Positions 12,601 through 15,600 of a DNA stretch of 26,395 nt are shown here, in pieces. The stretch's first letter is position 1; each line of letters starts with the position of its first letter. Position numbers: made by a program. Origin of the DNA: a virus; UHGV virus genome UHGV-0085321; one strand, given 5' to 3'.

Positions 12601-15600
12601 AGGGTATAAGCCATTATCAAAGCCCACCCGTAGATAGGCTTTGTAATGGCTACTTCGCTTTTGCTTCCGCTCGCTTACGCCGGCGCTCTTCTTTCCTCTC
12701 GGCTTTTGCCATGTCCATGAATGCCTGCATGATCGAGTTCCGCATCATGTAGCTAACAAAGTGATGATTGACACAGCCGTTGAGGCGCAGCTGCTCGCCA
12801 AACTCATCCACCGAGGCCAATGCTTCCATCATGCCCTTCTCGCCTTTCATGAACTCTGAGAAGTCGCGCCCCGCTCTGGAGGCGCATTCAATAACACGAT
12901 CACTCATCCCGGAAGCCCGGGGATCGTAATCTGCAGCTGGTTAGCCAGGGAGTTAATCTCAGCGACCAACACTGGCTTCGTATAGCGCCATGCTGCCAGC
13001 CCTTGTCCGCAGAAGCTCGCCATGTCTTTCTTCTGGTCAAACTCATGACATTTCATGTTGAGCTGCGCACTTAAGCTGTTGCGATGCTGAAGTTCTCCGG
13101 TGAAGTAGTCATCGAGGACTTTATAGGCCGCGTACTTGAACCCGGGGTTTAACCAAGCCGCATAATCGTAAGCAACAAACTTCCCGCCATATGTTCCACC
13201 GTGTACACCGCGCTCAGTAAAAACCACAGATTCGTGGTTTTTCTCCAGCTCGGCTAAGAACTCTTTGGTCTGCTTGTTTCGCAGGTAGTGGTAAGGCGAT
13301 TCAGATTCACTTTTACCACTGGCTTTCCACATATCAGTGAGGCAGATCATGCCATCTTCACCGATACGAATTGGTTGATTGAAGAGGGTTAATGATTTCA
13401 TAGCGTGTACCTACTCTTTGAAATGAACCTTTGCCGCACAGGAAACCAGCCCACCGAGGCTCGCCAGCACTAACTGGTATCCTCAAAGGCCCATTCCAAA
13501 GGGGCAGGTTCGGTGTAAAAAACATGCGTTGCGGTACGCATTTATTGCAAAAAGCCCCGCATCGCGAGGCTCATTAAATGGACTTTGTGATTTGCAAAAA
13601 AATTAATTCAGACATTGCGTCCTGATGTATTCCTGCAGGTAGTTAACCTGCGCGGTTATCTTGTCGATTCCACTTCGGAGACGGTAATAATTGAGTTCAG
13701 CATCTGCTGTAAGTCCTGGGCTTTCTCCATCGCCCATGCCGCTGGCTCCGGTCGTTGACTTTGCACAGGTGGCGGCGACTTGCAGGCGCTTACGCCCAGC
13801 AGAAACATCAGCACGGAGACTTTCGATAGTCGCGTTAGCATCAGCAAGCTCCTTTGTATATCTGGCATCGAGTTCTGCTACGTCACGTTGACGCTTCTGC
13901 ATGTCAGCGATGATGTACGTGGCTTTATCGCGCTGTTCTTTATAGGTAATGGCGTTATCACGGTAATGATTAACAGCCCATGACAGACAGACGATGATGC
14001 AGATAACCAGAGCATAAATAATCGCGGCGACTCTGCTCACTGATCTATCCCCCAACAGGCTAATGCGCTTTCCTGGTCACGACGAATAACCTGTCCATAG
14101 CAGTTATTTGAACGTATGCGGCAATCGCGCCCACCATCTATTATCCACCAGCGAATCGCCTCGCATGCGCCCTTACGATCACCGGCATTCAGCCGCTTAT
14201 AAAACGTCGACGGGAAACACTTACCGGGGCCAATGTTATAGGGACAGAATGACGCTATACCCGCTTTCTGTGGTTCGGTCAGTGGTACTTTAATATTGCG
14301 CTCCACCCATGCCAGCGCCTTATCACGCTCAATGGCGTTGACCTGGTCGCATTTTTCCTTCGACAGTTTCATACCGGGAAAAACGGGTTTTCCATCCACC
14401 ATCGTGGCACCCCGACAGATGGTCCAGATGCCGGACCCATCGCGGTATGCCGTTGTGTGGTTACCTTCTTTTTCATCCAGAAACTGGTCGAGAATATCAG
14501 GCGCGGGCGCACCGACGGCAATCAGTGCCAGAACGGCAGCCGACAGGCCGTATCTGATTTTTGCGTTCATGGATATTTATCAGGATTTATCGGTTTCTGC
14601 CCACGGACAGGTTTATCTGTTCCGGTCAGTGACTTAATGTTGTGATTCCGGAGGAGTCTTCAGAGAACCAGTAATTATTCCTGGTAGCTTTCCTTTGTAG
14701 GTTATCCACACATTCTGCGCATCTAAAATTACGGGGCGCTTTTCCGGCGACTGCTCATCCCCTTCACATAACCCGGCAGCAACATCCAGGAAGACCTGTC
14801 TGATGCTCCTTCTGGCTGCTGCCTCATAAAACCCCAGCGCGGCACCTTCAACACGGTCCAGCGAGATGTCCAGGTCAAAAATTTCACCGTCAAAGCGTTT
14901 TTTGTCCCGTAACGCTAAAGTTACCGTAACTTTATTCTCAAAATTGCGGATCCCTTTCACAATCAGTTCATAGTTTTGAGTCATTGAATTACTCTCCCCG
15001 TGCAGCCTTACGACGGTCCTCTCTGATTTTGAAATACAGGTTAGTCAGATATGTCAGGAAGCCCAGAACCAGACTCCCCAGTACACCAATCGCAGCCCAC
15101 TGTGACGGACTGACCTGATCAAGCCACTGTAAAAACCAGTAGCCAGCACTGCCTGCGGAGGTGCCGTAGGCAATGCCAGTTGAGATTTTGTCCATTGATT
15201 TCATAGCAACGCCTCCGCCAGTAACGGATTGCGTAGTTCTTATATTGGGAAGGGAAAAAAGAAGGCCGCAGCGTAACTATCACTGATGAATTCAGGATAG
15301 CCAGTGGCTACGGCTCAGTTATGGTGCTGGTTAACGGACTTGAACCGCTACCCATTCGCTTACAAGGCGACTGCTCTACCATTGGAGCTAAACCAGCATG
15401 TTTGGCGGGACAGCGTGGACTCGAACCACGATAAGAAGGTTAACAGCCTTCCGTAATGACCTTTATACGACTGACCCAAATAAAAAAAGCCACCGTTGCA
15501 ACTTAAGAGTCACTAACGGCAGCTTACCTTCTAATTATGGCTAAATAGATAATTGCATGTCAAGGCTTTTAACAGCAACATGCTTAACTTTCTCAACACG

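Follow-up and report, generated by a model that had tools for sequence, protein, structure and literature searches.

The subject of this report is a pair of tandem transfer RNA (tRNA) genes in a stretch of 26,395 nucleotides (nt) from the virus genome UHGV-0085321; this whole stretch is called the window below. The pair lies between the gene of the antiterminator Q and the lysis genes. It consists of two intact, functional phage tRNA genes, for Asn and for Thr, which form a cassette as in phage 21, Sf6, BTP1 and many Escherichia and Salmonella prophages. The features of the locus are as follows, each with the evidence on which it was assigned:

15403 to 15477, minus strand: tRNA-Asn(GUU), 75 nt (ARAGORN, Rfam, fold, identity with phage 21 and Sf6, covariation, arm comparison).
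15322 to 15397, minus strand: tRNA-Thr(UGU), 76 nt (ARAGORN, Rfam, identity with phage 21, PMC12445682, arm comparison).
15398 to 15402, minus strand: the 5-nt spacer AACAU between the two tRNAs (variant alignment; AAUAU, AUUCA and others in the relatives).
15478 to 15525, minus strand: intrinsic terminator tR', a long hairpin with U7 (fold and identity to the terminators annotated in phage 21 and Sf6).
15534 to 15563, minus strand: late promoter pR', TTGACA-18 nt-CATAAT (agrees with the consensus at 11 of 12 positions and aligns with pR' as annotated in phage 21 and Sf6).
15541 to 16059, minus strand: Q antiterminator gene, 172 aa, like that of Sf6 and phage 21 (PF06530 Phage_antitermQ, E 1.6e-25; annotated so in the matching E. 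coli and phage records).
15260 to 15321, minus strand: downstream leader of 62 nt, UAACUGAGCCGUAGCC...GGCCUUCU, conserved and common with lambda (flank comparison at 59 loci and alignment with lambda and the locus L091).
14989 to 15204, minus strand: S21-type class II holin (pinholin), the first late gene after the tRNAs (PF04971 'Bacteriophage P21 holin S', E 8.6e-36; agrees with the phage 21 annotation).

ARAGORN reports tRNA-Thr(tgt) at 15322-15397 and tRNA-Asn(gtt) at 15403-15477 as the sole tRNA genes of the window, both on the minus strand and 5 nt apart; tRNA-Asn is transcribed first and tRNA-Thr second. The Rfam model RF00005, with a gathering score of 29 bits, matches both over its full positions 1-71, at 61.5 bits (E 2.9e-11) for tRNA-Thr and 55.3 bits (E 1.4e-09) for tRNA-Asn, and the minimum-energy fold alone gives a cloverleaf for each. 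Scores above the gathering value, together with compensatory substitutions in the helices (see below), mark both genes as canonical bacterial-type tRNAs. An earlier note, made from the sequence alone, had described two tandem tRNA genes at 15322-15477, 5 nt apart on the late strand, and ARAGORN and Rfam agree with it; the anticodons UGU and GUU given there correspond to the isotypes that ARAGORN assigns. Its placement of the pair between Q and the lysis cassette is borne out by the PF06530 match upstream and the PF04971 holin downstream. The note was also right that no toxin cargo is present: no open reading frame (ORF) lies between the tRNAs and the holin, hence there is no cargo gene at this place.

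The bases on which aminoacylation depends are in place. The identity set of the E. coli asparaginyl-tRNA synthetase (AsnRS) comprises the anticodon G34-U35-U36 and the discriminator G73; tRNA-Asn of the window has the loop CU-GUU-AA with this anticodon, G73 and an encoded CCA (3' end ...GUCCC-G-CCA), and its sequence predicts a substrate of AsnRS. The set for the threonyl-tRNA synthetase (ThrRS) of E. coli is G1-C72, C2-G71, G35 and U36, and the sequence of tRNA-Thr qualifies it as a ThrRS substrate: it starts with GC..., has the anticodon UGU (G35, U36) with G1-C72 and C2-G71, and ends with ...GC-A-CCA, i.e., with A73 and an encoded CCA. Function of the cassette tRNA-Thr in vivo is implied, since rescue has been reported for an identical tRNA-Thr (PMC12445682).

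The earlier note had pointed to an acceptor-stem mismatch and a weak D-stem in the GUU tRNA, and had called one of the genes possibly degenerate. Both irregularities of tRNA-Asn are there: its acceptor stem has U4•U69, and its D stem, of 3 bp, ends with U13•U22; an irregularity that the note overlooked is the mismatch G27•A43 atop the anticodon stem of tRNA-Thr, which reduces that stem to 4 bp (GUCGC/GCGAA). The anticodon arm of tRNA-Asn (GAAGG/CCUUC) has no CNG motif and carries C39; that of tRNA-Thr has no CNG at 28-30 or 40-42 and carries G39.

These irregularities were examined in the relatives of the pair. IMG/VR was scanned with a pattern for Asn(GUU)-Thr(UGU) tandems, which gave 120 loci. 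In the set of loci then compared, which also took in the phage 21 and Sf6 records, 55 full-length copies are 82-100% identical to the window pair and represent 27 distinct sequences; base pairs were counted in an alignment of 22 of these 27 variants. Standard pairs make up 92.4% of the cells, and double-sided (compensatory) changes occur in 9 of the 42 pairs, a number reached in 0 of 500 shuffles, with 0-2 in the slid controls. Examples are A28-U42 to C-G and A6-U67/G7-C66 to G-C/A-U in tRNA-Asn, and U3-A70 to C-G and G5-C68 to U-A in tRNA-Thr. The unpaired state is kept at 4:69 and 13:22 of tRNA-Asn in 22/22 variants each and at 27:43 of tRNA-Thr in 21/22. Thus, U4•U69, U13•U22 and G27•A43 are conserved family features, not decay, and the tRNA structure is under purifying selection. 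The suggested degeneracy of tRNA-Asn is rejected: its Rfam score is 55 bits, its identity bases and CCA are intact, phage 21 and Sf6 carry it with 100% identity, its non-pairs are conserved in 22/22 variants, and its helices covary. Recent capture from the host is ruled out as well, considering that the identity to the K-12 genes is about 58% for tRNA-Asn (asnT) and about 70% for tRNA-Thr (thrU).

The pair is the tRNA-Asn/tRNA-Thr late-leader cassette that has already been annotated in phage 21 and Sf6, and in this sense it is known. Over tR' and both tRNAs the window has 100% identity with the two phages, whereas the flanks diverge; upstream, the promoter spacer resembles that of Sf6, and downstream, the holin leader resembles that of phage 21. 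The placement is the same, too, with tR' immediately before the pair and the lysis genes after it. The phage 21 record OL657228.1 gives the order pR' -35, Q-binding element, -10, transcription start, sigma-dependent pause element, terminator, tRNA-Asn, tRNA-Thr and S21 holin/antiholin, and Sf6 (AF547987) is annotated like phage 21 at this locus. A 401-nt query around the tRNAs matched 98 phage records and 1031 of 5426 complete E. coli genomes; most of the matching records listed annotate tRNA-Asn and tRNA-Thr beside 'antiterminator Q'. In a scan of one genome per species, which used a strict pattern and therefore understates the range, there were 6 matches, in Escherichia, E. albertii, Phytobacter and Shimwellia (Enterobacteriaceae) and on two short contigs of metagenome-assembled genomes (MAGs). 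The latter contigs (L126 and L130) are binned to Segatella copri and Collinsella MAGs and are almost certainly mis-binned enterobacterial phage DNA. The genes being annotated in reference phages and in print by 2013, and the Thr member being functionally characterised in 2025, the discovery value of the pair itself is small.

The cassette behaves as a discrete unit. Flanks were compared at 59 loci that have a full-length family copy and enough flanking sequence (loci from the later genome scan were added to this set). The near-identical pair is found there behind three types of late control, namely that of phage 21, that of Sf6 and the window, and lambda's own pR'-6S-tR', and the near-identical copies start 3-4 nt past the T-run of the terminator. 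Other contexts precede the few diverged copies, and two of these contexts likewise end with a hairpin and a T-run. When lambda, a lambda-type relative (L091) and the window are aligned, the flanks are identical, and exactly where the window has the 156-nt pair, lambda has about 159 nt of unrelated sequence; ...GGGATTTTTTAT bounds this segment on the left and AACTGAGCCGTAGCC... on the right. The right-hand boundary is the 62-nt leader at 15260-15321, past which the holin-specific sequence starts. The cassette occurs with lambda-like, P22-like and phage 21 structural modules alike. The lambda segment at the place of the cassette (L132, NC_001416.1, ~44790-44950; ~159 nt) overlaps the 3' end of orf-64. 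We considered whether it holds a decayed tRNA remnant and rejected this, Rfam giving 0 matches in it at E<=10.

Between 15150 and 15700, pR' is the only promoter-like site. Its spacer sequence is of the Sf6 type and not that of the phage 21 Q-binding element; judged by homology to phage 21 as annotated, the elements for Q binding and pausing lie within and just downstream of pR'. The -35 hexamer of pR' is inside the last Q codons (15541-15563, minus strand). The tR' hairpin folds with -20.8 kcal/mol (z = -4.66; 0 of 200 shuffles are equally stable), and its T-run ends 3-4 nt before tRNA-Asn; the terminator annotation of phage 21 in OL657228.1 refers to PMID 1704887. A simple terminator scanner gave no call for tR', owing, we think, to its stem and loop limits; the hairpin is instead supported by the fold and by homology with phage 21. 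The pR' transcript made without antitermination would be about 50 nt long and consist mostly of the tR' hairpin.

The cassette has no promoter of its own, and we presume that RNA polymerase would read through tR' only after Q acts, so that the tRNAs would lie in the 5' part of the late transcript. Excision by the host tRNA-processing enzymes would follow, the CCA being encoded. Expression only after Q acts is suggested because the cassette sits 3 nt past the T-run of tR' and no other promoter-like site is nearby.

As to the purpose of this arrangement, we believe, with a probability of roughly 0.65, that the two intact tRNAs, expressed late under the control of Q, most likely replace host tRNAs that have been cut by nucleases. 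Their main job would be to substitute for tRNAs cut in the anticodon stem by anti-phage nucleases of the Toprim type, such as Old of P2 and AriB of PARIS (P2/P4-like elements), and in this way they would keep the translation of late proteins going; tRNA-Asn would likewise replace a secondary target of Old and AriB. According to the literature, tRNA-Thr(UGU) is the primary target of Old and a prime target of AriB, while host tRNA-Asn(GUU) is a slower substrate of Old and a secondary target of AriB, though one of biological relevance. The anticodons of the cassette thus match host tRNAs targeted by known anti-phage tRNases. AriB cuts after C40 in U36-A-A-U39-C40, and a change of U39 to A abolishes the cleavage. 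Host thrU and asnT both have UAAUC (U39-C40) and a paired CNG, whereas phage tRNA-Thr has UAAGC and phage tRNA-Asn has UAACC. Compared with the arm ACUGA/UCAGU of host thrU, the arm GUCGC/GCGAA of phage tRNA-Thr has U28-A42 in place of C28-G42, the mismatch G27•A43 and no CNG. The determinants of cleavage are thus altered relative to the host in both phage tRNAs.

For the Thr member a counter-defence function is published. Phage 21 tRNAThr (UGU) protects against P2-OLD, and phage Thr(UGU) tRNAs rescue cells (PMC12445682); tRNA-Thr of the window is identical to the 'tRNAThr21' of that paper, i.e., the rescue from Old toxicity was obtained with the same sequence. Since the window tRNA-Thr is the published sequence, its G27•A43 is part of the published resistance signature. 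For tRNA-Asn we infer a counter-defence role from comparison, and the circumstantial case is coherent. We would go further in one tentative proposal, to which we give somewhat less than an even chance: Asn-Thr may be a minimal two-tRNA cassette against Toprim nucleases, in which tRNA-Asn too is resistant (by C39, the loss of CNG and the strictly conserved U4•U69); the position behind tR' may be adaptive, supplying resistant decoders in step with the late mRNA and keeping them silent in the lysogen; and the unit may move between lambdoid late leaders, with at least three Q/tR' types, under the pressure of P2/P4 defence hotspots.

Several points weigh against this explanation. Q-dependent expression and processing are suggested by the position of the cassette, and the Asn role by comparison of sequences. 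The reported Thr rescue from Old toxicity was only partial (PMC12445682), and a single viral Thr(UGU) failed to rescue lambda from Old (2026 preprint). tRNA-Lys(UUU), the prime target of AriB, is required for rescue; the cassette has no tRNA-Lys(UUU), and because it does not supply this tRNA, the pair alone is unlikely to defeat the characterised PARIS. Four diverged family members have C28-G42 in tRNA-Asn, which restores the CNG motif, and the Asn tRNA of phage P1 has a perfect AriB site, UAAUCA, so that not every phage Asn-Thr tandem looks resistant. Finally, tRNAs made only late would arrive after a nuclease triggered early had acted. We also considered HepS, an anticodon nuclease that is triggered by lambda J and cuts tRNA-Thr, -Ile and -Ser, and set it aside as the target nuclease: its cut falls in the anticodon loop, where host and phage tRNAs do not differ, and a way of escape for the phage tRNA is not obvious.

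The most familiar alternative to replacement of cut tRNAs is codon supplementation, i.e., extra decoders for ACA (Thr) and AAY (Asn) that speed the translation of late or cargo genes; the earlier note had likewise spoken of tRNAs that offset rare codons. ACA is a low-usage codon, and thrU, its only dedicated decoder, is a single-copy, low-abundance tRNA, which counts for such a role; host tRNA-Asn, encoded by four gene copies, is not limiting, which counts against it. By approximate counts (greedy longest-ORF calls, with one 50-kb K-12 sample as the host baseline), ACA makes up 8.2 per 1000 codons in the late genes (14% of the Thr codons) vs 9.2 in the K-12 sample (17%), and Asn codons 35.0 vs 41.9 per 1000. 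The late genes, which are co-transcribed with the tRNAs, are thus not enriched in either, and compensation of their codons is not supported by the ACA and AAY usage. The early and nin region alone in the window is modestly ACA-richer, with 12.5 per 1000 (27% of the Thr codons), and this can be counted for a supply role. The rare-codon proposal of the note is not supported by lambda either, which has near-identical late genes (97.6%) and no tRNAs; nor does it agree with the occurrence of the cassette beside all three kinds of structural modules, and it leaves the conserved changes of the anticodon stems unexplained. The SfI genome paper ascribes tRNA-Thr to ACA codon bias, ACA being 17.3% in the phage vs 7.1% in the host; however, its authors found no Asn bias and considered the significance of tRNA-Asn 'not clear' (PMC3636060). 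We regard codon supply as unlikely to be the main role.

Two further explanations would make decoding secondary or deny it. The tRNAs could serve mainly as processing or structural elements of the late leader; for example, cuts by RNase P or RNase E at the tRNAs would free the late mRNA from the tR' hairpin and set its 5' end and stability. The start 3-4 nt past the T-run of tR', fixed behind three terminator/promoter types, and the conserved boundary sequences agree with this. However, lambda and many relatives work without a tRNA at this spot, the lambda segment having no RNA-family match; a pure processing signal does not need conserved anticodons, identity elements and CCA; and the plasmid-expressed Thr tRNA rescues translation away from the leader (PMC12445682). 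We find this explanation quite improbable. Still harder to accept, and already largely refuted, is the opinion that one or both genes are decaying, functionless pseudo-tRNAs that hitch-hike with the Q/tR' module. The acceptor U•U and the 3-bp D stem of tRNA-Asn and the G•A mismatch of tRNA-Thr could be taken in its favour, as could variant v8, which has a 1-nt deletion in the Asn anticodon stem, and at least one RefSeq genome (H41) in which Thr alone is annotated at the locus. It is at odds with the Rfam scores of both genes, about twice the threshold, with the identity of phage 21, Sf6 and the window despite diverging flanks, with the nine compensated pairs and the mismatches kept in 21-22 of 22 variants, with the intact identity elements and CCA, and with the in vivo activity of an identical Thr tRNA (PMC12445682).

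Some consequences are of general interest. What looks like a defect in a phage tRNA, a stem mismatch for example, can be a conserved and possibly adaptive feature and no sign of decay. The default account of lambdoid tRNAs by rare codons should yield to counter-defence where the anticodons match nuclease targets. The role of the Asn partner, called unclear since 2013, now comes with a specific testable prediction, namely that it would be another nuclease-resistant replacement.

Elsewhere the window resembles lambda: 62% is covered at 97.6% identity, from Nu1 to the tail genes, and NinB and NinG are also encoded. In the order of transcription, the holin is followed by a DUF1327 ORF, a lysozyme and Rz. 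The DUF1327 ORF (116 aa, 14634-14984, minus strand; PF07041, E 1.7e-41) lies between the S21-type holin and an endolysin of the signal-anchor-release (SAR) type, and is an insertion within the lysis cassette relative to phage 21, where holin and endolysin are direct neighbours. At 12650-13401 on the minus strand, between Rz and the Nu1 terminase gene, there are a KilA-N + ORF11CD3 protein (165 aa) and an 85-aa ORF without a Pfam match; they represent moron-like accessory cargo, located where the lysis region ends. In the nin region, at 18806-19417 on the minus strand, an ORF of 203 aa with HNH_3 and AP2 domains resembles a homing-endonuclease insertion. At 23173-25333 on the plus strand a CI-like repressor (HTH_3 and Peptidase_S24) precedes RexA (PF15969, E 1e-97) and probably RexB; the prophage therefore has an abortive-infection system of its own, on the strand opposite to the late genes.

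Among known systems the closest is that of phage 21 (CPT_21_64 and CPT_21_65), with which the window agrees in sequence, in the Asn-Thr order, in the 5-nt length of the spacer, in the position from Q/pR'/tR' to lysis and in the S21 holin. It differs from phage 21 in that the promoter and Q-binding spacer is of the Sf6 type, the structural genes are lambda-like and the DUF1327 ORF splits the holin and the endolysin. The same Asn-Thr pair is present in Sf6, BTP1, SPN9CC, ST64T, SfI and mEp506. Lambdoid phages that convert to Shiga toxin (Stx) production have tRNA genes downstream of Q/pR' as well (ileZ-argN-argO of 933W), which are Ile and Arg rare-codon decoders followed by stx cargo. The window shares with these clusters the late-leader slot between Q and the first late or cargo genes; its isotypes, however, are Asn and Thr, there is no cargo, and Ile/Arg tRNAs followed by stx are not found in it. 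Phage P1 (AF234173.1, 69105-69182), also a temperate coliphage, has Asn(GUU) and Thr(UGU) genes with the same anticodons in the same order, its Thr being 79.7% identical to that of the window. The genomic context in P1 is another one; P1 Thr keeps a 5-bp stem and CNG, and P1 Asn keeps U39-C40-A41.

Tandems of Asn(GUU) followed by Thr(UGU) recur outside this family (IMG/VR loci L005-L124): the pair stands alone at 25 loci and is joined by Met(CAU), Gly(UCC) or Arg(UCU) at others, these frequencies being biased, as the search pattern required the Asn-Thr arrangement. A version of their own is present in P1-like phages. One locus (L063, 4120-4195 in reverse-strand orientation; IMG/VR uncultivated viral genome 2529292889_000004) has a chimeric tRNA-Thr(UGU) whose anticodon stem is weakened: its first 26 nt belong to the phage 21 type, whereas the other 50 nt resemble thrU. 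Next come tRNA-Gly(UCC) and a terminator. The targets that P2 Old prefers include Thr(UGU) and Gly(UCC) (2026 preprint).

Among the known counter-defence tRNAs are tRNA-Lys, -Thr and -Asn of T5, which act against AriB of PARIS, and tRNA-Thr(UGU) of T4, T5, Bas32 and HK446, which act against P2 Old. The cassette resembles the rescuers of the T4/T5 type in that its anticodons match the targets, U39 is replaced, CNG is lost and the stem is shortened; G39 is also present in T5 Thr and Asn, which rescue from PARIS together with T5 Lys. In contrast to these rescuers, the window has a minimal set of two genes in a temperate phage, behind a Q-controlled terminator and without a Lys(UUU) partner, whereas the T4/T5-type rescuers belong to large, early-expressed tRNA arrays of virulent phages.

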